A stretch of DNA of 64,000 nt from a virus. Of this stretch, positions 932 to 45,474 are shown one piece after another (position 1 is the first letter of the stretch; the number at the start of each line of letters is the position of its first letter). The stretch is taken from the IMG/VR virus record IMGVR_UViG_3300027518_000008. The stretch is one strand, 5' to 3'. A program made the translations under genes and the position numbers. A model generated the notes under the pieces. That model did no database searches. It was not told the DNA's origin and saw only the letters and a list, made by a program, of their open reading frames with translations.

Positions 932-2656
932 ATGTCTGTCCCAATTTCAAATGTTACCCGCCGGGTAGTGCTCGCCGCCTCTGGCACGGGGCCATATTCT
1001 TTTACCTTTGAAATCCTTGCCGCTACCGACATTTCGGTATACAGGGACGATACCCTTCTTACCCTGACTACTGACTATACCGTAACGATTAACACCAACG
1101 GTACTGGTTATGTAACCCTGACGGCTACACCTACCGGCGCTACCCAGATTGCCATTGTTGGCGACCGGGCAATCCAGCGTACCTCAGACTTCACAACTGG
1201 TGGCGACTTGTTCGCTACAACCCTGAACGATGAGCTAGACAGCCTTACCATCTTCGCCCAGCAAAATGCTGAGGCCGTAGACCGGGCTCTAAAAGCGCCT
1301 CAGACTGACCCAACAAACATCAGTATGACCCTGCCACGGGCGACCTCACGGGCAGGCAAGGTGCTGTCATTTGACTCCAACGGCAACCCTGCTGCGGTGG
1401 ACTACATCGGAACTAACCGTGGTAATTGGGCCTCTGGTACGGCTTACAACCAGCGTGACATTGCCAAGGATACGACCAACGATAACATCTATCAGGTTCT
1501 TACTCCGCACACATCTTCTGGTTCCCTGCCGCTTTCAAGCAATGCAGATATTGGCAAATGGGCATTACTGGTTGACGCAGCCGCAGCTAGCTCATCTGCC
1601 ACGGCCGCAGCTGCGAGCGCATCAGCAGCCTCAAGCTCTGCCTCTACCGCATCAACGCAGGCAACAAACGCAAGCAACTATGCGACTGCTGCCAGCACCT
1701 CGGCAAGCAATGCCTCGACTAGCGCATCTGCCGCCGCCGCAGACGCAGCTTCTGCTGCCTCGGCATTAGCTCAGACCTTGACTGCGTATGACAACTTCGA
1801 TGACCGCTACCTTGGGGCTAAGTCCTCTGATCCGTCCCTAGATAATGACGGCAATGCGCTGATAGCTGGGGCTCTGTACTTCAACACCGTCCTGCCGGGT
1901 ATGAAGGTCTACACCGGCTCGGCATGGGTGATTGCTTATGTGTCTGGTGGTGGGTTCTTATCAACGGCCAACAACCTGTCCGAACTGACGGCAACGGCTA
2001 GCACGGCCAGAACAAACATTGGCCTAGGTACTGGAGACAGCCCACAGTTTACAGCGGTCAACGTAGGCAACGCATCTGACACAACTGTCACCCGTGTTTC
2101 TGCTGGAGTGATTGCAGTCGAGGGCAGCAATGTCCTGATGGCATCTAACATTGGAACATCGGTTCAAGCCTATGATGCGCAACTGGCAGACATTGCTGGC
2201 CTAACCCCGACAGACAATGGAGTAGTCATTGGCAACGGTAGCAACTTTGTTGTTGAGTCTGGGGCCACGCTCAAGACTTCTCTTGGCCTGACAATTGGTA
2301 CTGACGTACAAGCCTATGACGCAGATACAGCCAAGACTGACGTAGCCCAAACATTTACAGCATCTCAACGTGGCACGGTTACGACTGACAATGACGGCTC
2401 CTTTGACCTGTCGGTGACAAACAACTTTGCTTGCACACCTACTGGTTCATTTACCCTGACATTTACCAATATGACCGCAGGACAGAGTGGATTCATTCTG
2501 CTGGTCAACGGTAGCAACTACACCGTGTCAGCTCACGCCAATACCAAGGTGGTGTCTGGATCGCTAACCACAATATCTGCAACCGGGACGTATTTGCTGT
2601 CGTACTGGACTAACGGTACGAATACCTATGTAGTCAACTCAGGAGCACTAGCTTGA
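932..2656 (+). CDS. Tail fibre protein, T7 gp17-type N-terminal anchor
   Basis: N-term YSFTFEILAATDISVY...TDYTV and DELDSLTIFAQQ typical of T7-like fibre anchors; Ala/Ser-rich linker; C-terminal domain shared with 38168-38929. Confidence 0.8.
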   Translation: MSVPISNVTRRVVLAASGTGPYSFTFEILAATDISVYRDDTLLTLTTDYTVTINTNGTGYVTLTATPTGATQIAIVGDRAIQRTSDFTTGGDLFATTLNDELDSLTIFAQQNAEAVDRALKAPQTDPTNISMTLPRATSRAGKVLSFDSNGNPAAVDYIGTNRGNWASGTAYNQRDIAKDTTNDNIYQVLTPHTSSGSLPLSSNADIGKWALLVDAAAASSSATAAAASASAASSSASTASTQATNASNYATAASTSASNASTSASAAAADAASAASALAQTLTAYDNFDDRYLGAKSSDPSLDNDGNALIAGALYFNTVLPGMKVYTGSAWVIAYVSGGGFLSTANNLSELTATASTARTNIGLGTGDSPQFTAVNVGNASDTTVTRVSAGVIAVEGSNVLMASNIGTSVQAYDAQLADIAGLTPTDNGVVIGNGSNFVVESGATLKTSLGLTIGTDVQAYDADTAKTDVAQTFTASQRGTVTTDNDGSFDLSVTNNFACTPTGSFTLTFTNMTAGQSGFILLVNGSNYTVSAHANTKVVSGSLTTISATGTYLLSYWTNGTNTYVVNSGALA

Positions 2657-5076
2657 GCGTCTTACCAGTAGGATTTGGTTCTGCGCTTGGCGGCTATCAG
2701 ATAGAGCGCAGTCTGCGGTTTAACTCTGCGGATAGTGCAAGATTAACTCGAACATTTGGAACGCCCACAAATCAAGAAAAATGGACTATGTCTATGTGGG
2801 TTAAAAGAAGTGGTTTGGGGATTAACACGGGGTTATTTGGCGCAGGAATCAGCGATTCAAATTTGGAAGTTTGGTTTGATACCAACAATAAATTATGTTT
2901 TAACGCCGCAACAAGCCCAGATAACAGGACAAAAATTACAACTCAGGTGTTTAGAGATTGTTCAGCTTGGTATCATTTAATTTGGGCATACGATACAAGC
3001 CTTCCATCTGATTCAAATAATAGCCCAACTGCTTTAAAAATTTATGTTAATAATTCTCTTATTACATCATTTTCCACTTTTGAATCTATTTCTTCTTATA
3101 CATTAGTTCCATTTAATTCAAATGGTGCTGTTGTAAATATCGGCAATCAAACTATAAGCAACTATTATTTCAGCGGCTATATGGCCGAGATTTATTTCAT
3201 TGACGGTCAAGCCCTAATACCATCCTCATTCGGCGAAACTGATTCTGCCACAGGTGTATGGAAGCCCAAGGCTTACTCTGGCACATACGGTACTAACGGC
3301 TTTTACCTCAACTTCTCAGACAACTCTGGCACGACATCCACAACGCTAGGCAAGGACAGTTCAGGCAATAGTAACAACTGGACACCTAACAACTTCTCGG
3401 TGACTGCGGGTGTTAACAATGACTCGCTAGTAGATTCACCTACGGCATACGGTACAGACACAGGCGTTGGTGGTGAGGTGCGTGGGAATTACTGTACTTG
3501 GAACCCTCTGGACAAACAAACAAGCGTCACCATAGCAAACGGGAACCTTGACGCAACCTATACTGGAACCACAGATGTCTATGGGTGTTTTTCCACTTTC
3601 TCAGTATCAAGTGGAAAATGGTATTGCGAGTTTACGGCAACTGGGCTTGGGGGTTCTGCTTATCCGCAGATTGGTATACGAAGAAGTAACAACTATGTTG
3701 CACAATATATTACAGAAACTTATGTAGACATAAAAGCTGGAACTTCTAATAATCGTGGTTCTGCTGGCCCAACATTTACGGCATTTATTGATAGTGATGT
3801 TTTGGGTATTGCGTTCAATGCTGATACTGGAGAGATATTCTTTTCCAAAAATGGTACTTGGTTAAATAGTGGAAACCCAGCCGCAGGAACGGGAGAATTC
3901 TTTTCTGGCTTAACTGATGGCCCATTTAAGTTTGGTATTGGTATGTACTCAAGCAGGACTGCCTTTGCCAACTTCGGTCAACGTGCCTTTGCCTACACAG
4001 CCCCCTCTGGCTTTAAGGCATTGTGTACAACTAATCTGCCTACGCCGACCATCGGTGCTACTAGCACTACACAGGCGAATGATTACTTTAATGCGGTAAC
4101 TTATACAGGTAATGGAACTAGCCTTAGCGTAACTGGTGTTGGCTTCCAGCCTGATTTAATCTGGATTAAAGACAGAAGCAATGCAAGGGCGCACGTTTTA
4201 CAAAATGCTATTGCTGGCTTTTCCCAATATCTACAATCTAATGCTACAGATGCAGAGACAACAGCATCTTCTGGCGTAACTGCGGTTGGGTCTGATGGAT
4301 TTACGGTTGGAACTCAGTTGGCATGGAATAGTAATACTGAAACCTATGTCGCATGGAACTGGAACGCTGGCGGCTCAACTGTAACCAACACTAGCGGCAC
4401 AATATCGGCACAGGTCAGGGCGAATACAACTAGCGGGTTCTCGATTGTTACTTATACGGGTAACGGAACAAACGGTGCAACTGTTGGTCATGGTCTTGGC
4501 ATTGCTCCATCTTTAATTTTTATCAAAAACCGTGGTGCAGTAGCATCTTGGCTTGTTTATAGCTCAAGCATTGGTGCGTCTAACTTTTTAGTTTTAAATA
4601 CCACAGATGCTTCTGCCGCTTCTGCGCTTCCTTTTAATAATACAGCGCCAACTTCGTCTGTATTTTCTTTGGGAACTTCTGGTGGTACAAATACAAATGG
4701 GGGAACTTTTGTAGCCTACTGCTTCGCACCAGTAGCGGGGTATAGCGCTTTTGGAAGTTACACGGGCAATGCAGCCGCTGACGGCCCATTTATCTACACG
4801 GGCTTTAGACCTAGGTTTGTTATTAGAAAATGCTCTAGCGCAACAAGCAACTGGTTTATAAATGATGCAGCAAGAAACCCTTCTAATGTTGTTTTATTAA
4901 GATTGAATGCTGACCTTTCTGATGCAGAAAGTTCTGGTGCTAATTCTGATATTGATTTTCTATCTAACGGATTCAAAATTAGAGCAACATCTACTGCGGG
5001 TGTAAATCAATCTGGACAAACACACATATATATGGCTTTTGCCGAGACTCCCGCAAAATTTTCGCTTGCCCGTTAG
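2653..5076 (+). CDS. ConA/LamG- and SPRY-like lectin-domain tail protein, copy 1
   Basis: SLRFNS...WTMSMWVKRS, WYHLIW, YFSGYMAEIYFIDG (LamG-like); GKWYCEF...GIAFNADTGEIFF (SPRY-like); overlaps fibre stop. Confidence 0.75.
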   Translation: MSVLPVGFGSALGGYQIERSLRFNSADSARLTRTFGTPTNQEKWTMSMWVKRSGLGINTGLFGAGISDSNLEVWFDTNNKLCFNAATSPDNRTKITTQVFRDCSAWYHLIWAYDTSLPSDSNNSPTALKIYVNNSLITSFSTFESISSYTLVPFNSNGAVVNIGNQTISNYYFSGYMAEIYFIDGQALIPSSFGETDSATGVWKPKAYSGTYGTNGFYLNFSDNSGTTSTTLGKDSSGNSNNWTPNNFSVTAGVNNDSLVDSPTAYGTDTGVGGEVRGNYCTWNPLDKQTSVTIANGNLDATYTGTTDVYGCFSTFSVSSGKWYCEFTATGLGGSAYPQIGIRRSNNYVAQYITETYVDIKAGTSNNRGSAGPTFTAFIDSDVLGIAFNADTGEIFFSKNGTWLNSGNPAAGTGEFFSGLTDGPFKFGIGMYSSRTAFANFGQRAFAYTAPSGFKALCTTNLPTPTIGATSTTQANDYFNAVTYTGNGTSLSVTGVGFQPDLIWIKDRSNARAHVLQNAIAGFSQYLQSNATDAETTASSGVTAVGSDGFTVGTQLAWNSNTETYVAWNWNAGGSTVTNTSGTISAQVRANTTSGFSIVTYTGNGTNGATVGHGLGIAPSLIFIKNRGAVASWLVYSSSIGASNFLVLNTTDASAASALPFNNTAPTSSVFSLGTSGGTNTNGGTFVAYCFAPVAGYSAFGSYTGNAAADGPFIYTGFRPRFVIRKCSSATSNWFINDAARNPSNVVLLRLNADLSDAESSGANSDIDFLSNGFKIRATSTAGVNQSGQTHIYMAFAETPAKFSLAR
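2689..3290 (+). repeat. 602-bp direct repeat, copy 1
   Basis: Starts GGCGGCTATCAG, ends CTGGCACATACGG; same text at 38962-39563 (offset 36273); two reading frames translate identically. Confidence 0.9.
3988..4097 (+). repeat. 110-bp direct repeat, copy 1
   Basis: TTTGCCTACACAGCC...TTTAATGCGGT also at 40279-40388. Confidence 0.85.
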
Positions 5077-5085
5077 GTAAACAAA

Positions 5086-5607
5086 ATGCCACAAGGAAGA
5101 TTCCATCAAGACCAAAGCGGGACAAAGATAAATATGCTAACTCTTTTGTTTCGAACCAATGAGCAATCTAAAAACGGAAGTTATAAATATATGACCCGTT
5201 GCGATTGCGGAACAGAAAAGATTGTTGCTTACAATCAAATGACCCGTGGTAGCACTAAGTCTTGTGGTTGCTTGCAATTCAGAAAAGGCGAAGATAGTCC
5301 GAACTTCAAACACGGTTTAGCGTTGAAATCGCACCCAGAATACAAGCGTTATCAGCGTGAGTGTTTTGACCGTCACCGCTATAACCTTGAGCCTCAACAC
5401 AAAGCCGCATTACTAGACGCACAAAACGGTGGTTGTGCTATCTGCGGGTACAAATTTGAGCAGAAAATAGGCGATATGAAAGTTGACCACAACCATTCAA
5501 CGGGCGAGGTCAGAGGTTTATTATGCGATTTATGCAATCGAGGGCTTGGTATGTTTAGGGACAATCAAGACAATCTGACCAAAGCAATATCTTATTTAGC
5601 GAGGTAA
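5086..5607 (+). CDS. Free-standing endonuclease VII-type HNH (homing) endonuclease
   Basis: CAICG...VDHNHSTGEVRGLLCDLCNRGLG; N-terminal CDCG...SCGC. Confidence 0.85.
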   Translation: MPQGRFHQDQSGTKINMLTLLFRTNEQSKNGSYKYMTRCDCGTEKIVAYNQMTRGSTKSCGCLQFRKGEDSPNFKHGLALKSHPEYKRYQRECFDRHRYNLEPQHKAALLDAQNGGCAICGYKFEQKIGDMKVDHNHSTGEVRGLLCDLCNRGLGMFRDNQDNLTKAISYLAR

Positions 5608-5610
5608 CAA

Positions 5611-6132
5611 ATGTTTCAACTCAATGGCAACCCAATCTCAATAGATTCTGAAGTAACCATCAATGGTATCCGCTACCCACACCTGCGTGACCCTGCTCTG
5701 CGTGAGCAACTAGGTATCGTAGAGGTAGCAGACCCAGAGCAGTATGACCAGCGTTTCTATTGGTCTCCTACATTGCCTAAGCTGCTTGATGACCGTGAAG
5801 AAGTAGACGAAGACGGTAATCCCATGTATGTCAAAGTCTTGGGTGTGGTCAACGGAGAACCTGCAATGGTTGACTCCACAGAGCGTCTGGTGACCAAAGG
5901 ACTCAAGAGCCAATGGACTTCTCAGGTTAAGCAGACTGCTGGTTCTATGCTTGCCCAAACTGACTGGATGGTAGTCCGCAAGGCAGAGCGCAATGTAGAC
6001 ATCCCCGCAACGGTGGTCGCAAAGCGTGCGGCGATTGTGGCTGAGTGCGACAGGCTAGAGGCTGCGATTGCGGCTTGCACGACTGTCGAGGCTCTGATTG
6101 CGGTAGTTGGCAACCAAGGATGGCCTGCATAA
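5611..6132 (+). CDS. Tail-fibre-associated (assembly/chaperone-like) protein, copy 1
   Basis: LAQTDWMVVR motif; follows fibre genes; close paralog at 42006-42527. Confidence 0.55.
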   Translation: MFQLNGNPISIDSEVTINGIRYPHLRDPALREQLGIVEVADPEQYDQRFYWSPTLPKLLDDREEVDEDGNPMYVKVLGVVNGEPAMVDSTERLVTKGLKSQWTSQVKQTAGSMLAQTDWMVVRKAERNVDIPATVVAKRAAIVAECDRLEAAIAACTTVEALIAVVGNQGWPA

Positions 6133-6293
6133 TGGCTACAATCGTAGAGGTCAAAGGCCAACTTGACACCCACGAAGCCGTCTGTGCCGAACGCTATCTT
6201 GGGATAAACGCTAGACTAAAGCGCCTAGAGCAAATCCTGATTGGCTCTGCTGGATTCATAATCGCCCTACTGCTAAGCCTAGTCGTTAAATGA
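6132..6293 (+). CDS. Small coiled-coil protein with C-terminal membrane anchor (53 aa), copy 1
   Basis: THEAVCAERY...RLKRLE then hydrophobic tail; paralog at 42527-42688. Confidence 0.7.
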   Translation: MATIVEVKGQLDTHEAVCAERYLGINARLKRLEQILIGSAGFIIALLLSLVVK

Positions 6294-6760
6294 CCACCAT
6301 CGCTGCCAGAGCGTCTACGGGAGAAATTGCCGCAGATTCGATGGTCAGCGGTGATGACTCCTTCTACCTCGTAGAGAAGCTCCGTAAGGGACAAGAGAGC
6401 ATCTACGGGGGTTGCGGAGATTGGGATAAACTATTAAAGTTCTACAATTCGTTGGAGTCTGGGGCAGACCTAGACTCGGATACGGATGTGACCGTTCTCG
6501 AACTCAGAAGTGATGGCATTTGGATTTACGAGAGTACCATCATTCCTGCGAAGATAAAGAACGACTTTTGGGCAATTGGAACTGGGGCAAACTTTGCTAT
6601 CGCTGCCATGCACTTAGGCTTAACTCCGGCAGAAGCAGTAAAGCTGGCGTGTCTGTACGACACATCCTCCCACGAGCCAATTGACGTAATGTCTCTAAGC
6701 GGGAGGAAGCGTGGTAGCACTAAAAAAGGTATCGGACGAGGAACTAATAGCGGCGTTTAA
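6290..6760 (+). CDS. Ntn-hydrolase (proteasome beta/HslV-like) peptidase, copy 1
   Basis: M-T-T-I-A start, IAADS, conserved Lys (EKL), AIGTG. Confidence 0.7.
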   Translation: MTTIAARASTGEIAADSMVSGDDSFYLVEKLRKGQESIYGGCGDWDKLLKFYNSLESGADLDSDTDVTVLELRSDGIWIYESTIIPAKIKNDFWAIGTGANFAIAAMHLGLTPAEAVKLACLYDTSSHEPIDVMSLSGRKRGSTKKGIGRGTNSGV

Positions 6761-7649
6761 GACCTACGGGAGTCCACAGAAGGTCTCTCAGGTTCTAGGC
6801 ATAGACGTAGGAACGGTTTACCGAAGGCGGTCGGCACTAAAAGACGTATCCCTGCCCTCCTTTGCCGCAAGACAGCACAGCATCGCCAACACATACATCC
6901 CCGATAACCGTAGGGTTATCTCCCACACCGTAGATAACGGTCATGTCTTTATAGCCTCGGACTGCCACTACTGGCCTGGCGAGGAAACCGTAGCACACAA
7001 GGCGTTTGTTTCCCTGCTGACAGAATTTAAGCCCAAGACCATCATCCTAAACGGGGATGTGTTTGACGGGGCTAGAATCAGCCGCCACGCCGCCCTCATG
7101 GGTACTAACCCCCCTACCCCAAAGCAAGAGATAGAAGCCTGCCAAGACCGTCTACACGAGATTGCAAACGCTTCTAAGAACGCTACTAAGCTTTTCACCT
7201 ACGGTAACCATGACGTAAGGTTGTTTAATTACATTGCAACCCACGCCCCAGAGTTATCTGAGTTCAGCGACTTGTTTTCGTACTTTCCAGGTTGGCATAC
7301 GGGGTGGCGGGTGGACATAAACAACTCTGTTGTGGTCAAGCATCGGTGGCACAACGGGCAACACGCGACATATAACAACGCCCTGAAGTCTGGCAGAAGT
7401 ATCGTCACAGGACACCTGCATAAACTGATGGTTACCCCGTGGACGGACTACAATGGGCGCAGATACGGTGTAGACACAGGAACGCTTGCGGAGCCAGGTG
7501 GCGACCAATTTGTGTATGTAGAAGAAAACCCCGTGAACTGGTGTTCTGGGTTCTGCGTTCTGACATTTAAGAATGGTATGTTATTACCACCAGAGTTATG
7601 CGAAGTAATAAACGGCGTGGCTTACTTTCGAGGAGAGAAAGTGGGATAA
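6711..7649 (+). CDS. Calcineurin-like metallophosphoesterase with N-terminal HTH-like segment, copy 1
   Basis: SDCH, NGDVFD, GNHD, GHLH motifs. Confidence 0.85.
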   Translation: MVALKKVSDEELIAAFKTYGSPQKVSQVLGIDVGTVYRRRSALKDVSLPSFAARQHSIANTYIPDNRRVISHTVDNGHVFIASDCHYWPGEETVAHKAFVSLLTEFKPKTIILNGDVFDGARISRHAALMGTNPPTPKQEIEACQDRLHEIANASKNATKLFTYGNHDVRLFNYIATHAPELSEFSDLFSYFPGWHTGWRVDINNSVVVKHRWHNGQHATYNNALKSGRSIVTGHLHKLMVTPWTDYNGRRYGVDTGTLAEPGGDQFVYVEENPVNWCSGFCVLTFKNGMLLPPELCEVINGVAYFRGEKVG

Positions 7650-8099
7650 ATGAGTGATTTAGTAGCCTCGGCAAAGAGTGCCGCGCAGGGAATAAAAAGC
7701 GCGATAGCCGCAGGGAAAGAGATTGAAGCAGTAGTCAACGATATTCAAAAACTTGGGGTCGCAGAACTCCAAGCCAAGCAACAGTTCCAAAAAAAGCAAC
7801 GGGTAGTTAAGGGCGATACCACCATCCTCACAGCCTTTGCGGAGTGGCGCAGACTTAAAGAAATCAAGGAAGCCGAGGACGACTTATTCCAGCAGCTTGT
7901 TGAGCGTTACGGCAAGGACAAGGCTGAGTTTGAGTGGAAGGACATCCAAGCCATCAAAGAGCGCCAGATAAAGGAAGTCAAGGACGGGCGTGACGAGATG
8001 GGGCGTGACCTAAAGAAACTCCGAGAACTCAAGGTTATGTGCTTCATAGCCTCGCTAATCATAGTCACCACTTACTACATCTTCAAAGGACACCTGTAA
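7650..8099 (+). CDS. Coiled-coil protein with C-terminal TM segment, copy 1
   Basis: ORF; near-identical paralog at 44049-44498. Confidence 0.7.
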   Translation: MSDLVASAKSAAQGIKSAIAAGKEIEAVVNDIQKLGVAELQAKQQFQKKQRVVKGDTTILTAFAEWRRLKEIKEAEDDLFQQLVERYGKDKAEFEWKDIQAIKERQIKEVKDGRDEMGRDLKKLRELKVMCFIASLIIVTTYYIFKGHL

Positions 8100-8602
8100 T
8101 GCTATCCCTAATATCTTCCGCTATTGGCTTTTTTGCCTCTGGTCTACCTCAAGTACTAAATTTCTTCCAAGACAAGGCTGACAAGGCGCAAGAGTTGAAG
8201 TTAGCGCAGATGCAGACCGAGCGCGAGTTAGCCCTTGCAGAACGCGGTTTCCTAGCCCAACAAAGGGTCGAGGAGATTAGGACTGACCAGATTGCCCTTC
8301 AGACCGACGCAGACCGCCAGAACGCCGCTTTAGACCACGACAAGGCTATCATGGCTCGCGCCTCTAGTTGGGTCGTGAACTTGAACGGCATAGTTCGCCC
8401 TGCGGTCACCTTTATCTTTGTCTTAGAGTTGGTGCTAATTAACATGGGGCTGACTTACTTCTTGCTAAAGGGCGGTCTTGGAGACATGAGCGTGGAGCAG
8501 TTTATCGCCGCCACAGACGTAATCTTCTCCGAAGACGAGATGGCCCTGCTCTCTGGGATTATTGCTTTCTGGTTCGGGAGCCGCCAATGGGGTAAGAAGT
8601 GA
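8099..8602 (+). CDS. Putative holin (multi-TM), copy 1
   Basis: Hydrophobic segments, VRPAVT and FWFGSR motifs, directly before lysozyme; start moved to ATG overlapping previous stop. Confidence 0.65.
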   Translation: MLSLISSAIGFFASGLPQVLNFFQDKADKAQELKLAQMQTERELALAERGFLAQQRVEEIRTDQIALQTDADRQNAALDHDKAIMARASSWVVNLNGIVRPAVTFIFVLELVLINMGLTYFLLKGGLGDMSVEQFIAATDVIFSEDEMALLSGIIAFWFGSRQWGKK

Positions 8603-9078
8603 AAGTCAGCAAGGAAGCAATAGAGGGGATTAAGAAAGACGAGGGGGTAAGGACAAAACCTTACCGCTGCCCAGCCCTGCTGTGGACTGTTGGGGTTGGA
8701 CACGTTATCGACCAGAACCACATAAGGGTAAAGTTTGATGACCGCAAAAATCTACCAATTCCCGACGGATGGGACAGAGTTCTTAGCATGGCAGAAGTTG
8801 ATGCTATCTTGGCTCAGGACTTGGCTACATTCGAACGAGGTGTTCTGCGCCTCTGTCCAGGTGGACTTACTCAAGGCCGCTTTGACGCTCTGGTTTCCTT
8901 CTCCTTCAACGTCGGGCTTGGCAACCTCCAAAGGTCAACCATCCGCATGAAGCACAATCGTGGAGACTTTGAGGGCGCGGCAGAGTCCTTCATGGCGTGG
9001 ACTAAAGCGGGCGGGAAAGAACTGCCTGGCTTAGTTAAACGTCGGAAGCACGAACGCGCTCTCTATGAATCTGAGTAA
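8599..9078 (+). CDS. Endolysin, GH24 lysozyme, copy 1
   Basis: EG...YRCPA..WTVGVGH, FDALVSFSFNVG, GLVKRR..E. Confidence 0.92.
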   Translation: MKVSKEAIEGIKKDEGVRTKPYRCPALLWTVGVGHVIDQNHIRVKFDDRKNLPIPDGWDRVLSMAEVDAILAQDLATFERGVLRLCPGGLTQGRFDALVSFSFNVGLGNLQRSTIRMKHNRGDFEGAAESFMAWTKAGGKELPGLVKRRKHERALYESE

Positions 9079-38167: not shown

Positions 38168-38929
38168 ATGCCTAAAACCAAGATTTCAGAATACTCAACG
38201 ACCAACTCCTCTAACACAGACATAGAAAGCATTAATATCGACGAGGGCTGTGCGCCCTCTGGGATAAACAATGCTATCCGTGAGCTGATGGTTCACCTAA
38301 AGGAGTTCCAGACAGGCTCATCTGGTGACCCTCTGACGGTCGCTGGCGGGATGTTCATATCTGGGGGTGGGTCGGCTAACACCTTGACCGTGACGGGGAT
38401 TCTGACGGCTTCTGGGGGCACGATTCTGTCCTCTACGAACACCTTGTCCGGCTCCAACATCATTTCTGGCAATATCAACTCGTCGGGAACCACAAATACG
38501 TTCTCTGGCGGCAACATCCTGTCGGGTATGAATACGATTTCCGGGTCTGCGATTATCTCTGGGAACATCAACTCTAGCGGGACAAACACCTTCTCGGGGA
38601 CGCAGGTTATCTCTGGTGGGTCTACCTTCTCAGGCGCAGCCAAGGGAACCCTGGTAACGGACAACGACGGCAGCTTTGACATGACCGCAGGAAACAACTT
38701 CACCTGTACGCCTACGGGAACGATTACGCTTACATTTACTAACATAACTAGCGGACAATCGGGTAACATTCTGCTAGTAAATGGTAGCAATTACACGGTA
38801 TCTGCCCACGCCAACACGAAGGTTGGAACTGGCGTGCTTACGGCACTATCGGCTACTGGGACGTACTGGGTAAGTTACTTCTCTAACGGAACCAATGTTT
38901 ACATATCTGCGACAGGCGCGTTAGCATGA
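38168..38929 (+). CDS. Short tail fibre/adaptor protein
   Basis: I.INI.EGCAPSGINNAIRE N-term, 6-aa NTxSG repeats, C-terminal domain shared with 932-2656. Confidence 0.72.
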   Translation: MPKTKISEYSTTNSSNTDIESINIDEGCAPSGINNAIRELMVHLKEFQTGSSGDPLTVAGGMFISGGGSANTLTVTGILTASGGTILSSTNTLSGSNIISGNINSSGTTNTFSGGNILSGMNTISGSAIISGNINSSGTNTFSGTQVISGGSTFSGAAKGTLVTDNDGSFDMTAGNNFTCTPTGTITLTFTNITSGQSGNILLVNGSNYTVSAHANTKVGTGVLTALSATGTYWVSYFSNGTNVYISATGALA

Positions 38930-41364
38930 GCATAATTCAAGGCAATGCACATACCTCTGCGGGCGGCTATCAGATAGAGCGCAGTCTGCGGTTTAACTCT
39001 GCGGATAGTGCAAGATTAACTCGAACATTTGGAACGCCCACAAATCAAGAAAAATGGACTATGTCTATGTGGGTTAAAAGAAGTGGTTTGGGGATTAACA
39101 CGGGGTTATTTGGCGCAGGAATCAGCGATTCAAATTTGGAAGTTTGGTTTGATACCAACAATAAATTATGTTTTAACGCCGCAACAAGCCCAGATAACAG
39201 GACAAAAATTACAACTCAGGTGTTTAGAGATTGTTCAGCTTGGTATCATTTAATTTGGGCATACGATACAAGCCTTCCATCTGATTCAAATAATAGCCCA
39301 ACTGCTTTAAAAATTTATGTTAATAATTCTCTTATTACATCATTTTCCACTTTTGAATCTATTTCTTCTTATACATTAGTTCCATTTAATTCAAATGGTG
39401 CTGTTGTAAATATCGGCAATCAAACTATAAGCAACTATTATTTCAGCGGCTATATGGCCGAGATTTATTTCATTGACGGTCAAGCCCTAATACCATCCTC
39501 ATTCGGCGAAACTGATTCTGCCACAGGTGTATGGAAGCCCAAGGCTTACTCTGGCACATACGGCACTAACGGGTTCTACCTAAAGTTTGCAGACAACTCT
39601 GGCACGACCAGCACAACGCTAGGCAAGGACAGCTCAAGCAACGGTAACAACTGGACACCTAATAACTTCTCGGTGACCGCTGGTGCTGGCAATGACTCCT
39701 TAGTAGATTCACCTACGCCATACGGCACAGACACAGGTGTTGGTGGTGAGGTGCGTGGGAATTATGGAACATGGAACCCACTAGCAAAAGGAAGTAATAC
39801 AACCCTTTCAAATGGAAACCTAAATGTTTTAGGAAGCACTAATAGCACAGGAAACAACAACTTTTCAACTTTTATACCATCAAGCGAAAAATGGTATTTT
39901 GAAGTAAGTCCTGCTAATACATATTCATATTCATATGTTGGTGTAAGTTTAGATGGTAACTTGTCAACATCTAGTAATTTTGTTGGTGCTACGGCAAGTA
40001 GCGTAGGAATTGAACTTGGGACAGGGGCTGTTTGGAGAAACAATTCAAATCAAGGCACTGGTGGAACAGGGGTTAGTGCTGGAGAAACTTTGATGGTTGC
40101 GTTTGAACCGTCAAGCGGAAAAGTGTGGGCGGGTAGAAACGGTACTTGGTATAACTCAGGAAACCCTGCGGCTGGAACAGGACAAGTAGCAACTATTCCT
40201 ACTGTTGGGGCTATCGGGCCAGCCGTTTCTCCATATTCTAGTAGCGGTACGCTTTCTTTCAACTTTGGTCAACGTGCATTTGCCTACACAGCCCCCTCTG
40301 GCTTTAAGGCATTGTGTACAACTAATCTGCCTACGCCGACCATCGGTGCTACTAGCACTACACAGGCGAATGATTACTTTAATGCGGTGTTGTGGACTGG
40401 CAATGACACAGACAGAAGTATTACTGGTGTTGGGTTCCAACCTGACTTTACTTGGCTAAAAGTACGGAACACAACAGGTAACAATGTTTTATTTGACTCT
40501 GTTCGTGGTGCGCTAAAAGAACTTTATTCAAATACAACAGGGGCAGAATCAACAGAAACAAACGGATTAGATTACTGGGAGTCTGATGGCTTCCACATTA
40601 AAGCTTCTAGGTGGAACGCTTCACCAAACACCTATGTTGCATGGAACTGGAACGCTGGCGGCTCTAACGCTACCAACACCTCTGGCACTATAACCAGCAC
40701 AGTCAGGGCGAATACGACTAGCGGGTTCTCGATTGCAACCTACACTGGCAACGGCTCTGGTGGCGCTACGGTGGGTCACGGGCTTGGAGTAAGTCCGGCG
40801 ATGATTTTTATTAAGTCCAGAAGCAACTCAACAAACTGGATGGTTTGGCATCAAAATCTAACCGCCAACTACGCTTTTGAAGGACTAAATACAACCGGAG
40901 CAGAAGTCAACGGGGGTTCGCCTTCTAAATATGTTCGTTCAGTTTCTTCAACTCTTGTGACAATTGGTAACGACATATCTGTAAACCAAAGTGCTTCTTA
41001 TACTTATGTTATGTACTGCTTCGCCGCAGTAGCGGGGTATAGCGCCTTTGGAAGTTACACAGGTAATGGTTCTACGGATGGGGTGTTTGTGTACACGGGC
41101 TTTCGCCCTAGGTATGTGATGACCAAACGTACTGACTCAACAAGCAATTGGGTTATACAAGACACGGCAAGAGACACATACAATGCAACAAATAATGCTT
41201 TGTTTGCAAACTTAAGTCTGGCAGATAACACAGGCCCGTGGTTTGACATACTTTCAAATGGATTCAAAGTAAGAAATAACGGAAGCGACACAAACGCAAG
41301 TAGTGGAACCTACATTTATATGGCCTTTGCCGAGGTGCCCATGAAATATAGTTTGGGACGCTGA
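38926..41364 (+). CDS. ConA/LamG- and SPRY-like lectin-domain tail protein, copy 2
   Basis: First ~200 aa identical to copy 1; diverged SPRY-like and distal blocks. Confidence 0.75.
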   Translation: MSIIQGNAHTSAGGYQIERSLRFNSADSARLTRTFGTPTNQEKWTMSMWVKRSGLGINTGLFGAGISDSNLEVWFDTNNKLCFNAATSPDNRTKITTQVFRDCSAWYHLIWAYDTSLPSDSNNSPTALKIYVNNSLITSFSTFESISSYTLVPFNSNGAVVNIGNQTISNYYFSGYMAEIYFIDGQALIPSSFGETDSATGVWKPKAYSGTYGTNGFYLKFADNSGTTSTTLGKDSSSNGNNWTPNNFSVTAGAGNDSLVDSPTPYGTDTGVGGEVRGNYGTWNPLAKGSNTTLSNGNLNVLGSTNSTGNNNFSTFIPSSEKWYFEVSPANTYSYSYVGVSLDGNLSTSSNFVGATASSVGIELGTGAVWRNNSNQGTGGTGVSAGETLMVAFEPSSGKVWAGRNGTWYNSGNPAAGTGQVATIPTVGAIGPAVSPYSSSGTLSFNFGQRAFAYTAPSGFKALCTTNLPTPTIGATSTTQANDYFNAVLWTGNDTDRSITGVGFQPDFTWLKVRNTTGNNVLFDSVRGALKELYSNTTGAESTETNGLDYWESDGFHIKASRWNASPNTYVAWNWNAGGSNATNTSGTITSTVRANTTSGFSIATYTGNGSGGATVGHGLGVSPAMIFIKSRSNSTNWMVWHQNLTANYAFEGLNTTGAEVNGGSPSKYVRSVSSTLVTIGNDISVNQSASYTYVMYCFAAVAGYSAFGSYTGNGSTDGVFVYTGFRPRYVMTKRTDSTSNWVIQDTARDTYNATNNALFANLSLADNTGPWFDILSNGFKVRNNGSDTNASSGTYIYMAFAEVPMKYSLGR
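38962..39563 (+). repeat. 602-bp direct repeat, copy 2
   Basis: Matches 2689-3290. Confidence 0.9.
40279..40388 (+). repeat. 110-bp direct repeat, copy 2
   Basis: Matches 3988-4097. Confidence 0.85.
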
Positions 41365-41996
41365 TGAGCGAAAGGGCTGAAATGATAGGCAAACAGTTTG
41401 GCAGACTAACACCAGTAGAGGTGATAGGAACCAAAAGGATTCACCTTGTCTATCGGTGTGTGTGCGAGTGTGGAAATGAAGTTGAAGTTTTAGGCAATTC
41501 ACTTAGGTCAGGCAACACTAAGTCTTGCGGATGTATTCGTAGACCAAATCTTGTAGGAATGGAAAATGACCACGGCGTTGTTGTATCAAAGGTTCGTAAT
41601 CAGATGTGGGAAATATCTTGTAAACATTGCGGAGAAACCCATGTTCAAAACCAGCGTGAGATAAGGCGCAATTCACATCCAATGTCTTGCTCGGCGTACA
41701 AACCGCCAAACAAAATGTTTGAAGATAAAAGAGACGGAAGTGTTCGTAGGCAATATGGAATTACGCTTGCCCAATATGATGAAATGTGTGCCGACCAAAA
41801 TGGTAAGTGCGCTATTTGCGGGAACTCTGATGAGGTTGAGGGAAGAAGACTCGCCATTGACCATTGCCACGACAGCGGGAAAGTTCGTGGATTACTGTGT
41901 GGCAAATGTAATCGTGGTCTTGGTTTGTTTTATGACAACCAAGAACTACTTGGAAATGCAATATCTTATTTAACAAAGTACAGTTTAGCCCGATAG
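41364..41996 (+). CDS. Free-standing endonuclease VII-type HNH (homing) endonuclease
   Basis: GKQFGRLT...CVCECG...SCGC; CAICG...AIDHCHDSGKVRGLLCGKCNRGLG. Confidence 0.87.
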   Translation: MSERAEMIGKQFGRLTPVEVIGTKRIHLVYRCVCECGNEVEVLGNSLRSGNTKSCGCIRRPNLVGMENDHGVVVSKVRNQMWEISCKHCGETHVQNQREIRRNSHPMSCSAYKPPNKMFEDKRDGSVRRQYGITLAQYDEMCADQNGKCAICGNSDEVEGRRLAIDHCHDSGKVRGLLCGKCNRGLGLFYDNQELLGNAISYLTKYSLAR

Positions 41997-42005
41997 GAGT
42001 AACAA

Positions 42006-42527
42006 ATGTTTCAACTCAATGGCAACCCAATCTCAATAGATTCTGAAGTAACAGTTAACGGTATCCGCTACCCACACCTGCGTGACCCTGCCCTGCGTGA
42101 GCAGTTAGGCGTGACTGAGGTAGCAGACGCACCTGACTATGACCAAAGATTCTGGTGGGGCGTAGGCAATCCTAAGCTCTTAAATGACCGTGAAGAAGTA
42201 GACCAAGATGGTAACCCCATGTATGTCAAAGTCTTGGGCGTGGTTGATGGTCAACCTGCGATGGTGGACTCAGCAGAGCGTCTGGTAACTAAGGGACTCA
42301 AGAGCCAATGGATTGCACAGGTTAAGCAGACTGCTGGCTCTATGCTTGCCCAGACCGATTGGTATGTATGGCGTAAGTTTGAGAGGAACATCGATGTGCC
42401 TGCTGCAGTGGCTACAAAGAGAGCCGCTATCGTTGCTGAGTGCGACAGGCTAGAGTCGGCGATTGCGGCTTGCACGACTGTCGAGGCTTTGATTGCGGTA
42501 GTTGGCAACCAAGGATGGCCTGCATAA
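42006..42527 (+). CDS. Tail-fibre-associated protein, copy 2
   Basis: Paralog of 5611-6132. Confidence 0.55.
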   Translation: MFQLNGNPISIDSEVTVNGIRYPHLRDPALREQLGVTEVADAPDYDQRFWWGVGNPKLLNDREEVDQDGNPMYVKVLGVVDGQPAMVDSAERLVTKGLKSQWIAQVKQTAGSMLAQTDWYVWRKFERNIDVPAAVATKRAAIVAECDRLESAIAACTTVEALIAVVGNQGWPA

Positions 42528-42688
42528 TGGCTACAATCGTAGAGGTCAAAGGCCAACTTGACACCCACGAAGCCGTTTGTGCTGAACGCTATCTTGGGAT
42601 AAACGCAAGACTGAAACGCCTAGAGCAAATCCTGATTGGCTCTGCTGGGTTCATAATTGTTTTACTGCTAAGCCTAGTGCTTAAGTGA
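42527..42688 (+). CDS. Small coiled-coil membrane-anchored protein, copy 2
   Basis: Paralog of 6132-6293. Confidence 0.7.
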   Translation: MATIVEVKGQLDTHEAVCAERYLGINARLKRLEQILIGSAGFIIVLLLSLVLK

Positions 42689-43128
42689 CCACAGTAGCTG
42701 CAAAATTTTCTACGGGAGAAATCGCCGCAGATAGTATGGTTAGCGGCGACGATTCTTTCTACCTAGTTGAGAAGCTACGACGTGGCAAGGATTGCGTCTA
42801 TGGTGCTTGCGGCGACTGGGATAAGATTCTAAAGTTTTATCAGGCAATGGAATCAGGTGGTGATTTAGATTCTGATATTGACGTGACCGTTCTTGAGCTC
42901 AGACATGATGGCATTTATATTTACGAAAGTACCATCATACCTGCCAGAATTAAGAACGACTTTTGGGCCATAGGTACTGGTGCTAACTTTGCAATAGCGG
43001 CAATGCATATGGGGGCATCTCCCCGTGAGGCGGTCGCTATTTCTTGTATGTATGACACAAGTTCCCATGAGCCCATCGACGAAGTTAAACTTACGGGGAA
43101 AAGTCGTGGCGCTAAAAAAAGTATCTGA
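42685..43128 (+). CDS. Ntn-hydrolase (proteasome beta/HslV-like) peptidase, copy 2
   Basis: M-T-T-V-A, IAADS, AIGTG. Confidence 0.7.
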   Translation: MTTVAAKFSTGEIAADSMVSGDDSFYLVEKLRRGKDCVYGACGDWDKILKFYQAMESGGDLDSDIDVTVLELRHDGIYIYESTIIPARIKNDFWAIGTGANFAIAAMHMGASPREAVAISCMYDTSSHEPIDEVKLTGKSRGAKKSI

Positions 43129-44047
43129 CGAAGAAATCATTAGTTCGATGAAAAGGTTTGGCAGTACGAAGATTGCTGCCGAGCACGTTGGTCTGTCTGT
43201 CCGGGCTCTAGCCCAACGCAAGGCCAAGATTCAAATGCAGTATGGCATCTCTCTACCAGCGTACTTAGCACCACAAGATAGCCAACGCAATACATTCATA
43301 CCAGAGAACCGCAGGGTTATAGAACACAAGGTAGACAATGGCCATGTATTCATCGCCAGCGATTGCCATTACTGGCCAGAAGAATCAACCGTAGCCCACA
43401 AAGCATTTGTCAAATTGCTGACTGAGTTTAAGCCTAAGACTATTGTGCTTAATGGTGATGTCTTTGATGGGGCTAGGATTAGCCGCCATGCCGCTTTGAT
43501 GAAGACTAACCCGCCAACACCAAAGCAGGAAATCGAAGCCTGCCAAGACCGGCTGCATGAGATTGCTAACGCATCTAAGAACGCTACTAAACTGTGGACG
43601 TATGGCAACCATGACGTGCGCCTCTTTAACTACATCGCCCAGAACGCACCGGAACTATCAGAGTTTAGCGATTTGTTTGCATACTTCCCGGGATGGCATA
43701 CCGGATGGCGTATAGACATTAACGACTCTGTTGTTATCAAGCATCGCTATCATAACGGCGTGCATAGTACGTGGAACAATGCCTTGAAATCTGGGCGCAG
43801 TATTATCACCGGGCATCTACATCAGCTCAAAACGACCCCCTTTTCAGATTACGATGGCCGTCGCTGGGGGGTAGACGCCGGGACGCTGGCCGAACCATAC
43901 GGGGATCAGTTTACCTACACCGAGATGAACCCAGTCAATTGGTGCTCTGGGTTTGTAGTGCTCACATTTGAGAACGGCAAGTTGCTTCCGCCAGAGTTGT
44001 GCGAAGTGCTTGATGGCGTTGCCTACTTCAGGGGCCAAAGGGTTTGA
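43106..44047 (+). CDS. Calcineurin-like metallophosphoesterase, copy 2
   Basis: SDCH, NGDVFD, GNHD, GHLH; GTG start matches copy 1. Confidence 0.85.
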   Translation: MALKKVSDEEIISSMKRFGSTKIAAEHVGLSVRALAQRKAKIQMQYGISLPAYLAPQDSQRNTFIPENRRVIEHKVDNGHVFIASDCHYWPEESTVAHKAFVKLLTEFKPKTIVLNGDVFDGARISRHAALMKTNPPTPKQEIEACQDRLHEIANASKNATKLWTYGNHDVRLFNYIAQNAPELSEFSDLFAYFPGWHTGWRIDINDSVVIKHRYHNGVHSTWNNALKSGRSIITGHLHQLKTTPFSDYDGRRWGVDAGTLAEPYGDQFTYTEMNPVNWCSGFVVLTFENGKLLPPELCEVLDGVAYFRGQRV

Positions 44048-44048
44048 C

Positions 44049-44498
44049 ATGAGTGACTTAGTATCATCGGCTAAGGGCGCAGCGCAGAGCATCAAGAGTG
44101 CAATTGCTGCTGGCAAAGAGATTGAGTCGGTTGTTACTGACATTCAGAAGCTGGGCGTTGCCGAGCTTCAGGCTAAGCAACAGTTTCAAAAGAAGCAGCG
44201 TGTAGTCAAAGGTGATACCACAATCCTTACAGCCTTTGCGGAGTGGCGCAGATTGAAAGAGATTAAGGAAGCAGAGGACGACCTGTTCCAGCAGCTTGTC
44301 GAACGTTACGGCAAGGACAAAGCAGAGTACGAGTGGAAAGATATTCAGGCAATCAAAGAACGGCAGATGAAAGAAGTCAAGGATGGCCGTGACGAGATGG
44401 GCCGTGACCTAAAGAAGCTGCGAGAGCTCAAGGTCATGTGCTTCATAGCTTCCCTAATTATTGTTACAACTTATTACATTTTCAAAGGACACCTGTAA
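44049..44498 (+). CDS. Coiled-coil protein with C-terminal TM, copy 2
   Basis: Paralog of 7650-8099. Confidence 0.7.
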   Translation: MSDLVSSAKGAAQSIKSAIAAGKEIESVVTDIQKLGVAELQAKQQFQKKQRVVKGDTTILTAFAEWRRLKEIKEAEDDLFQQLVERYGKDKAEYEWKDIQAIKERQMKEVKDGRDEMGRDLKKLRELKVMCFIASLIIVTTYYIFKGHL

Positions 44499-45001
44499 TG
44501 CTATCTCTTATCTCTACCCTCGGCGGCTTACTTATCTCCGGCCTGCCTCGTGTCTTAGATTTTTTCCAAGATAAATCTGACAAAGAGCAAGAGTTAAAGC
44601 TAGCCCAGATTCAGACTGAGCGTGAGCTGGCCTTGGCAGAGCGTGGCTTTATTGCACAGCAAAAGGTAGAGGAAATCCGGACTGACCAGATTGCCATGCA
44701 GACTGAGGCACAGATGCAAAACGCAGCTCTCGACCATGACAAGAAGGTAATGGAGCGTGCGTCTACTTGGGTGGTCAACTACGTTGGCACGGTACGACCG
44801 ACCGTGACCTATATCTTTGTGCTTGAGCTGGTGGCAATCAACGCATGGCTGGCTTGGAACATCTTTACCATGCCGCACCTAGTGGCTTCGGTAGGCGACG
44901 TTGAGAAGGTGGCCGAGCTTATCTTCTCAAGCGACGAGATGGCCATGCTGGGCGGCATCATTGGATTCTGGTTCGGCTCTAGGGGCTGGGCTAAGAAGTG
45001 A
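44498..45001 (+). CDS. Putative holin, copy 2
   Basis: Paralog of 8099-8602. Confidence 0.65.
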   Translation: MLSLISTLGGLLISGLPRVLDFFQDKSDKEQELKLAQIQTERELALAERGFIAQQKVEEIRTDQIAMQTEAQMQNAALDHDKKVMERASTWVVNYVGTVRPTVTYIFVLELVAINAWLAWNIFTMPHLVASVGDVEKVAELIFSSDEMAMLGGIIGFWFGSRGWAKK

Positions 45002-45474
45002 AGGTGAGTAAGGATGCAATCGAAAAAATCAAAAAAGACGAGGGAGTACGACTTCGTCCATACCGCTGTCCTGCTTTACTGTGGACTGTTGGTGTTGGTC
45101 ATGTTATCGATCCTAATCACATAAGGGTAAAGCTAGATGAACGCAAAGGACTTAGTATCCCTGATGGGTGGGATAGAGTTTTGTCAATGGCTGAAGTCGA
45201 TGACATACTTGCAAAAGACCTCGCTACGTTTGAGCGAGGCGTACTTAGACTTTGTCCAGAAGGACTTACCCAAGGCCGCTTCGATGCTCTGGTGTCCTTC
45301 AGCTTCAACGTCGGACTAGGTAATCTACAACGTTCTACTATCCGCATGAAGCATAACCGTGGTGACTTTGATGGCGCAGCCGAGGGCTTCATGGCATGGA
45401 CAAAAGCCGGGGGCAAAGAGCTCCCCGGCCTTGTCAAACGCCGCAAGCATGAACGGGATTTATACCTGAGCTGA
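44998..45474 (+). CDS. Endolysin, GH24 lysozyme, copy 2
   Basis: Same motifs as copy 1. Confidence 0.92.
   Translation: MKVSKDAIEKIKKDEGVRLRPYRCPALLWTVGVGHVIDPNHIRVKLDERKGLSIPDGWDRVLSMAEVDDILAKDLATFERGVLRLCPEGLTQGRFDALVSFSFNVGLGNLQRSTIRMKHNRGDFDGAAEGFMAWTKAGGKELPGLVKRRKHERDLYLS

Follow-up and report, generated by a model that had tools for sequence, protein, structure and literature searches.

A proteasome homolog of the PPH type and a metallophosphoesterase form an optional gene pair associated with phage lysis genes

Introduction

Proteasome homologs of the PPH family, described by Fuchs, Alva and Lupas in 2021, are proteins of about 140 residues that lack helix H2 and a propeptide, occur in tailed phages and prophages, and were given no function; the paper mentions neither phosphoesterase or phosphatase neighbours nor lysis genes (PMC8665760). 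A second phage family, phrog_221, has been characterised functionally in 2025 through Gp48 of mycobacteriophage A10ZJ24, a toxic phosphodiesterase that in vitro breaks down DNA in linear, circular and genomic form, destroys the host genome in vivo, and is needed to overcome the defences of Mycobacterium tuberculosis (PMC12287305). Both families are thus already catalogued. Here we analyse a viral DNA stretch of 64,000 nucleotides (IMG/VR record IMGVR_UViG_3300027518_000008; "the window" refers to this whole stretch), in which the gene for a PPH-type peptidase overlaps that for a metallophosphoesterase (MPE) fused to a helix-turn-helix (HTH) segment, directly upstream of genes for a coiled-coil protein, a holin-like protein and an endolysin. 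We did not find this PPH-MPE neighbourhood described in the literature searched. Of the proteasome family, PPH alone is native to viruses, and it gains here a concrete and testable context. What is added to the existing descriptions is a quantified enrichment of MPE genes near PPH genes, four partner MPE PHROG families, the clade structure of the pairing, its association with endolysins, a swap of the peptidase, and a verified homology to the Gp48 family.

Results and Discussion

Pairing of PPH and MPE genes across lineages

The association of PPH, MPE and endolysin genes is non-random but optional. Within the phage group of the window, the order PPH, MPE, none to two small genes and lysozyme is kept down to 68% MPE identity, and because such close synteny says little, the pairing was tested further out. 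IMG/VR was sampled with a degenerate DNA pattern encoding M-T-T-I-A, then any five residues and M-A-A-D, together with two peptide scans, giving 105 PPH loci (about 60 clusters at 60% identity) in a sample biased to PPH genes with the M-T-T-I-A...M-A-A-D N-terminus; an open reading frame (ORF) was scored as MPE-like if it carried GNH[DE] with GDxx[DNH] upstream. Thirteen MPE-like ORFs lay within 1 kb of PPH and three at 1-2 kb, with none in the 538 kb surveyed further out, a placement with a chance of about 4e-7 if such ORFs were spread evenly (1.5e-5 when clusters are counted). All ten candidates tested belonged to MPE PHROGs, six to phrog_221, three to phrog_704 and one to phrog_7339. When the MPE label is mapped on a PPH tree of 66 rows, 10 changes are required, compared with a mean of 15.2 after shuffling (a value as low arose in only 1 of 500 shuffles), and the label concentrates in two supported clades, one with the MPE gene before PPH (6 of 8 rows) and the other with the MPE gene after it (8 of 11 rows), the latter containing the window PPH.

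In other lineages an overlapping MPE gene follows PPH at locus L012 (phrog_221), at L013 (phrog_7339, then an endolysin), on L029, a contig of a Methylibium metagenome-assembled genome (MAG), and in Klebsiella phage vB_KpM_FBKp34 (NinI-like, phrog_246), and start/stop overlaps are typical of PPH-MPE neighbours. The PPH homolog of vB_KpM_FBKp34 (L002:4001-4915) is a protein of 304 aa with a C-terminal extension of about 100 residues; its gene shares 47 nt with that of the NinI-like Ser/Thr phosphatase and has a lysozyme gene 1.3 kb upstream of it. At two further loci the PPH slot directly upstream of the MPE gene is taken by HExxH zincin-like proteins of about 105 aa, with a 4-nt overlap at L030:5690-6007 and a 6-nt gap at L023:2686-3051. 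These proteins match phrog_1233 and give sub-threshold matches to DUF4344, SprT-like and DUF6782 metallopeptidases, and the MPEs beside them are 45-46% identical to that of the window. MPEs with 40-48% identity to the window MPE occur on nine MAG contigs, six of which have enough upstream sequence to judge the presence of PPH. A Cys-rich protein of 66 aa (weak HiPIP-like match, phrog_15838) directly precedes the MPE at L022:22-222, where the upstream sequence is too short for such a judgement, and at L027:5792-5992, where the MPE gene is placed after a holin-like gene and lysozyme, not before them.

The preliminary description of the locus, made from the window alone, had proposed a survey of gene neighbourhoods and had named absence of linkage in relatives as a finding that would count against its proposals. 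The survey shows that the pairing recurs far beyond this phage group with overlapping genes, and that enrichment goes together with absence of linkage in many relatives, as most PPH lineages and complete PPH phages have no MPE, which in part counts against those proposals. Its suggestion that the pair travels with receptor-binding genes does not generalise, since the commonest other PPH neighbour is the large terminase; what the pair goes with in other lineages is lysis genes.

Link with lysis genes

Endolysin genes around PPH were surveyed by phmmer with five endolysin seeds from the fetched loci, with loci or clusters as the units of the tests and deeper phylogeny uncorrected. A lysozyme-like ORF lay within 3 kb of PPH at 10 of 15 MPE-linked loci and at 4 of 90 others (p = 8.5e-8), which by cluster becomes 7 of 11 against 2 of 49 (p = 2.7e-5). 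The best-matching seeds differ among loci (three seed proteins), both gene orders occur, and in a Microcystis phage and at L027 the MPE gene adjoins the lysin gene even without PPH. The tie of the cassette to lysis genes therefore holds beyond the phage group of the window.

Such a tie is also what would be seen if the two enzymes acted in lysis directly. Both lack signal peptides and, like the endolysin, could pass to the envelope by way of holin lesions, there to substitute for missing spanins, with the peptidase cutting peptidoglycan-linked peptides or lipoprotein tethers and the phosphodiesterase an envelope phosphodiester. The embedding of the genes between membrane proteins and the holin and endolysin genes would fit such a role, as would the strong three-way association involving endolysins of differing type and gene order, seen likewise at L013, L012, L141 and L027 and in the Microcystis phage, the lack of an evident spanin pair after the lysozyme gene in the window, and the presence of LpxH among the tied fold matches of the MPE. 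However, the HTH or Zn-ribbon heads of the MPEs speak for nucleic acid as the target, and the one family member with a characterised activity is a DNase whose gene lies in an early replication region. Peptidases of the T1 proteasome type are not known to attack cell walls, and many PPH genes lie far from lysis genes. We regard a direct role in lysis as very unlikely.

The peptidase

The peptidase has M-T-T at its N-terminus and falls in phrog_1040 ('peptidase HslV family'; 1.6e-27), with no match in Pfam or NCBIfam, including none to the HslV/proteasome models. An exhaustive search of representatives with the peptidase returned 1585 clusters at E<=1e-3, mostly of 130-160 aa and matching from residue 1. 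In 96 PPH representatives D16, K30, G43, G97 and G99 are invariant and T2 is kept in at least 90%; in the window peptidase, T2, D16, K30 and G43 are the equivalents of proteasome Thr1, Asp17, Lys33 and Gly47. The AlphaFold2 (AF2) model (pLDDT 93) has a domain of about 137 of the 156 residues, with a single helix (45-57) where HslV has two, followed by helices 100-108 and 113-123. Among solved structures its best Foldseek matches are BPH (5ovs) and HslV (6kr1), then 20S beta subunits, all at probability 1.0 with TM scores of 0.6-0.74. The modelled alpha-beta-beta-alpha core, the size of about 140 residues, the missing H2 and the lack of a C-terminal S12/H5 are those of the PPH family, of which the peptidase is, as far as sequence and predicted fold tell, a member; membership was judged by phrog_1040, the cluster search, the fold and the residues. 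No gene for an HslU-type ATPase turned up in the phage ORF lists and neighbour tables examined, although no search was aimed at HslU. A role for PPH as a prohead protease was considered and set aside, as PPH is absent from many related phages.

The metallophosphoesterase

The MPE matches Pfam Metallophos (PF00149) at 27.1 bits, above the cut-off of 21.5, and phrog_221 at 3.2e-28, with no match in NCBIfam. All metal motifs are kept (D84xH86, G115-D116xxD119, G165-N166-H167-D168, H211 and G234-H235xH237), the nearly invariant H211 being in our reading the residue of motif IV. The AF2 model (pLDDT 76) comprises a three-helix HTH at residues 9-42 (helices 9-19, 22-29 and 33-42), a low-confidence linker at 43-66, and an MPE domain at about 67-312 with the MPE beta-sandwich fold, as supported by Foldseek (E about 1e-6) and by VIA Z-scores of 13-14.6 across 165-215 residues. 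When solved structures were searched with the MPE profile, the matches were weak only, to the Icc/Rv0805 cyclic-nucleotide phosphodiesterases (E 0.07-0.4). By tblastn the MPE finds 543 phage records, nearly all of actinophages, with 'metallophosphoesterase' or 'phosphoesterase' as the annotation in the rows sampled. Other PPH-linked MPEs also carry DNA-binding heads, with HTH_24 at 24.3 bits, above its cut-off, and the PPH-linked phrog_704 MPEs have Cys-rich, Zn-ribbon-like N-termini.

The relation to the Gp48 family was verified with gp47 of phage Theia, a cluster A MPE, which matches phrog_221 at 1.4e-113 and aligns by hhalign with the window MPE profile at a probability of 98.8% (E 4.7e-17), over columns 82-295, which are the whole MPE domain. 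Because of this homology to A10ZJ24 Gp48, and because of the DNA-binding heads on PPH-linked MPEs, we infer that the window MPE is probably a DNA nuclease. In Mycobacterium phage Theia itself (L138:3259-3885) the HTH-less MPE gene is directly followed by one for a separate DNA-binding protein (phrog_354, sigma-K-like), a two-gene arrangement that could be the split counterpart of the HTH-MPE fusion in the window.

That the catalytic residues are conserved, as the preliminary description had expected, is borne out by the PPH active-site set and the complete metal motifs, yet the functions that it had proposed fare differently. It envisaged a counter-defence pair, in which the peptidase would remove ubiquitin-like (Ubl) conjugates from virion proteins and the phosphoesterase would destroy nucleotide messengers or reverse defence phosphorylation. 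Late expression would suit the removal of conjugates from tail proteins, the PPH partner in vB_KpM_FBKp34 is a NinI-like Ser/Thr phosphatase, the MPE profile weakly touches Rv0805/Icc, and a member of phrog_221 has an anti-immunity phenotype (PMC12287305). A counter-defence role finds indirect support for the phosphoesterase alone, through immunity evasion by Gp48, and none for the peptidase. In contrast, Gp48, an early gene product, has host DNA as its target rather than cyclic nucleotides or phosphoproteins, DNA-binding heads are present on the MPEs, and we found no paper linking PPH or the window MPE to Ubl or messenger defence systems. The PADLOC models, which are defence and not anti-defence models, gave no hit for the cassette proteins; the NinI-like protein of the Klebsiella phage had a single weak hit, to PDC-S10. 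The known enzymes with such activities also appear to have folds other than MPE and T1 N-terminal nucleophile (Ntn), as Acb1, acting against CBASS, is a 2H protein, Apyc1, acting against Pycsar, is a metallo-beta-lactamase, and known Ubl deconjugases are JAMM or Cys enzymes. Nothing links a T1 Ntn peptidase to Ubl deconjugation, the Ubl-deconjugase and cyclic-nucleotide roles have no specific support, and we hold the counter-defence pair to be highly improbable.

A possible host-demolition module

The reading that we favour, at a probability of roughly one in three, is that the two genes form a facultative accessory module in the late lysis block that serves host demolition through a DNA nuclease and a partner peptidase. 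The MPE would be made late, while phage DNA is being packaged, and would destroy the host chromosome and unpackaged DNA, which may silence late host responses and ease release. That the peptidase is a working partner of the MPE and not a bystander is suggested less strongly, by a slot that is recurrently filled by a peptidase (PPH or an HExxH zincin-like protein), by the gene overlaps and by the clustering on the tree; it may either degrade host proteins beside the nuclease, or process or limit a toxic nuclease. Prediction of a PPH-MPE complex gave a score of 0.00, which counts neither for nor against binding. A stronger form would make PPH a partner dedicated to a toxic phage DNase, the two forming a peptidase-plus-nuclease module that fires with lysis, and would give the HExxH zincin the same job where it replaces PPH; this seems to us doubtful. 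The peptidase might in that case control the nuclease through cleavage of the flexible linker that joins HTH head and MPE domain, or alternatively clear DNA of bound proteins, allowing the nuclease to complete its work.

Several observations weigh against host demolition by a coupled pair. The activities of the PPH proteins and of the window MPE are predictions, and the MPE has only about 25-28% identity to the Gp48 family, whose proteins are of the order of 256 aa, lack the HTH, are encoded by early genes of the replication arm and have no PPH neighbour. Fold searches tie Vps29, LpxH, PolD DP1 and YfcE at Z of about 14, so that no nuclease subfamily is assignable. An adjacent MPE gene occurs in only 8 of the approximately 60 PPH clusters, and one within 1.6 kb in 11-12, leaving about 80% of sampled PPH lineages with no MPE nearby. 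Searches with PF00149 and phrog_221 detected no MPE in DSL-LC04, a complete phage with the closest isolate PPH (56% identity), or in a 96%-complete PPH provirus, and PPH is absent beside the MPE in 5 of the 6 informative relatives at 40-48% identity. The borders of lysis cassettes are, moreover, known insertion sites for unrelated accessory genes.

Alternatively, the two genes could be independent accessory genes (morons) that often come to stand side by side in a permissive slot at the border of lysis and packaging genes, with no functional coupling. This would fit the many PPH lineages and complete phages without MPE and the MPE relatives without PPH. PPH also occurs beside RecT/DnaC-like, DNA polymerase, small terminase and T7-type terminase genes, a census of 295 ORFs neighbouring PPH found large terminase as frequent as MPE, and the slot before the MPE in sister phages is filled by unrelated small genes. 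Independent insertion would not, however, readily explain why all 16 of 16 MPE-like ORFs lie within 2 kb of PPH, why four different MPE PHROG families recur as its neighbour, why start and stop codons typically overlap, why the slot has been refilled by another peptidase-like gene at two loci, or why the association is clustered on the PPH tree, and we consider it unlikely. If it is nevertheless correct and the coupling is not functional, the cassette is an ordinary accessory gene pair in a common insertion slot. Should the host-demolition reading hold and the coupling be functional, the cassette would describe how many environmental phages dismantle their host at the end of infection, and would reveal what work a minimal proteasome subunit performs when it has no ATPase. 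A dedicated partnership, if true, would be the first function for a viral proteasome homolog and would define a new and widespread lysis-linked host-demolition system.

Arrangement of the cassette and its second copy

The features of the two copies are listed in Table 1. On the plus strand, the genes from the tail fibre to position 9078 form a single run of abutting or overlapping genes, and a scan for promoter-like and terminator-like signals found no more than chance level. As the run has no gaps, ATGA and GTG overlaps join its genes, and promoter and terminator signals are only at chance level, the cassette reads as part of a late operon. In both copies the MPE gene starts at GTG after a Shine-Dalgarno sequence, which in copy 1 is GGGAGG, 4 nt before the start and inside the last 50 nt of the peptidase gene. 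Translation of the two genes is thereby coupled. A programmed frameshift that would fuse PPH to the MPE was considered, the MPE gene being in the +1 frame, and was rejected on account of its own strong Shine-Dalgarno sequence and start codon in both copies. Contigs of four lake-water RNA libraries from four studies span the cassette and bridge the PPH/MPE junction, although DNA carry-over is possible and levels are not given, so that this is not proof of transcription. No close nucleotide relative of the cassette was found among 50,697 phage records.

Table 1. Genes of the tail fibre-to-lysis region and of the second cassette copy in the window
Feature	Position	Strand	Remarks
Tail fibre	2653-5076	+	DUF7483, phrog_24898
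Endonuclease VII/HNH-type gene, 173 aa	5086-5607	+	homing-type
173-aa gene	5611-6132	+	
53-aa protein, C-terminal membrane anchor	6132-6293	+	stop overlaps PPH start (ATGA); no family assigned
PPH-type minimal proteasome homolog (predicted Thr1 Ntn peptidase), copy 1, 156 aa	6290-6760	+	phrog_1040
HTH-fused MPE, copy 1, 312 aa	6711-7649	+	phrog_221; Pfam Metallophos
149-aa coiled-coil protein, C-terminal hydrophobic (membrane) anchor, copy 1	7650-8099	+	no family
167-aa holin-like protein, three hydrophobic segments, copy 1	8099-8602	+	phrog_6637 at 3.3e-15 (function unknown)
GH24 endolysin (lysozyme), copy 1	8599-9078	+	Pfam Phage_lysozyme 1.1e-36; phrog_7 at 1.1e-47
53-aa membrane-anchored protein, copy 2	42527-42688	+	
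PPH, copy 2, 147 aa	42685-43128	+	GTG start
HTH-MPE, copy 2	43106-44047	+	GTG start, GGGGA upstream, 23 nt overlap with PPH
149-aa coiled-coil membrane-anchored protein, copy 2	44049-44498	+	
Holin-like protein, copy 2	44498-45001	+	
GH24 endolysin, copy 2	44998-45474	+	

The overlap of a Thr Ntn peptidase gene with that of a calcineurin-like phosphoesterase, noted in the preliminary description, is confirmed by the ORFs, by phrog_1040 and phrog_221, by the predicted folds and by the shared 50 nt. The downstream order of a transmembrane coiled-coil protein, holin and lysozyme stands as to order and lysozyme, and the holin is better called holin-like, a probable assignment based on its place directly before the lysozyme gene. 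The position between tail fibre and lysis genes is likewise correct, with three genes (endonuclease VII, the 173-aa gene and the 53-aa gene) between tail fibre and peptidase. The recurrence of the same order in a second phage was found at 42685-45474 and begins earlier, as 42527-45474 repeats the gene order of copy 1 from the 53-aa gene through the endolysin.

DNA likeness within the window is limited to 2384-9056 against 38657-45455, at 73-88% identity and with an offset of about 36.3-36.4 kb, which is close to the size of related metagenomic contigs (35-38 kb). Identity between the copies is 75% at the protein level and 70% at the DNA level for PPH, and 76% and 68%, respectively, for the MPE. 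Both genes are under purifying selection, because synonymous sites are saturated while the nonsynonymous divergence (dN) of PPH and MPE is 0.19; the description of the divergence as mostly synonymous was right as to selection, but a quarter of the residues differ. Copies 1 and 2 of the 53-aa membrane-anchored protein share 96% of their residues. The 149-aa coiled-coil protein, with 95% protein identity, dN 0.024 and saturated synonymous sites, is the most constrained gene of the cassette, and its counterpart in relatives is a 146-aa ORF, a 49-aa ORF or nothing.

Positions 1-64000 of the window comprise at least two different phage genomes in series, which could be mosaic relatives in tandem or an assembly running through a shared module. 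The early regions of the two phages have no detectable DNA similarity to each other, and a 600-nt sample from close to the 5' end of the tail-fibre gene shows 99% identity between them, compared with about 70% for the cassette. Directly after the tail fibre both phages have endonuclease VII/HNH-type genes (5086-5607, 173 aa, and 41364-41996, 210 aa), which resemble insertions of mobile homing endonucleases; in related contigs this place is taken by other small genes. In two relatives of this phage group (L142:1023-2045 and L143:1023-2045) a reverse transcriptase gene (RVT_1) lies downstream of a 735-aa gene in the tail-fibre position, which suggests a diversity-generating retroelement.

Comparison with known systems

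In its size (about 140-156 residues), phage origin, beta fold without helix H2, lack of a propeptide and active-site set, the window peptidase agrees with the PPH family, with no structural difference. It shares its catalytic residues with HslV (ClpQ) and BPH, which are its best fold matches (TM 0.68-0.74 at probability 1.0), but unlike these, PPH is 20-30 residues shorter and gives no match to the NCBIfam or Pfam proteasome models. As for the MPE, its top fold matches include Mre11/SbcD and PolD DP1, in which the MPE fold carries nuclease chemistry, and the phrog_704 and phrog_7339 proteins that adjoin PPH are annotated 'DNA repair exonuclease', as may be compared with Mre11/SbcD. This likeness is qualified by Z-scores that tie with non-nuclease MPEs, and the window MPE differs from Mre11/SbcD in lacking a Rad50/SbcC partner and a capping domain. 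Lambda NinI (lambda protein phosphatase, PHROG 246) is also a phage-encoded calcineurin-like MPE, of which one member lies directly 3' of PPH in vB_KpM_FBKp34; the window MPE nevertheless falls outside PHROG 246, and BLASTP between the two gives E 0.016 over only 80 residues. The closest described counterparts are Gp48 and the cluster A MPEs, with which the window MPE shares PHROG 221, homology throughout the MPE domain and all metal motifs. In contrast to Gp48, it is fused to an HTH, coupled to a peptidase gene, and placed at the end of a structural and lysis operon, and so late by gene position. Sequence comparison thus points to the window MPE as an HTH-fused, late and peptidase-coupled relative of a phage phosphoesterase that degrades host DNA.

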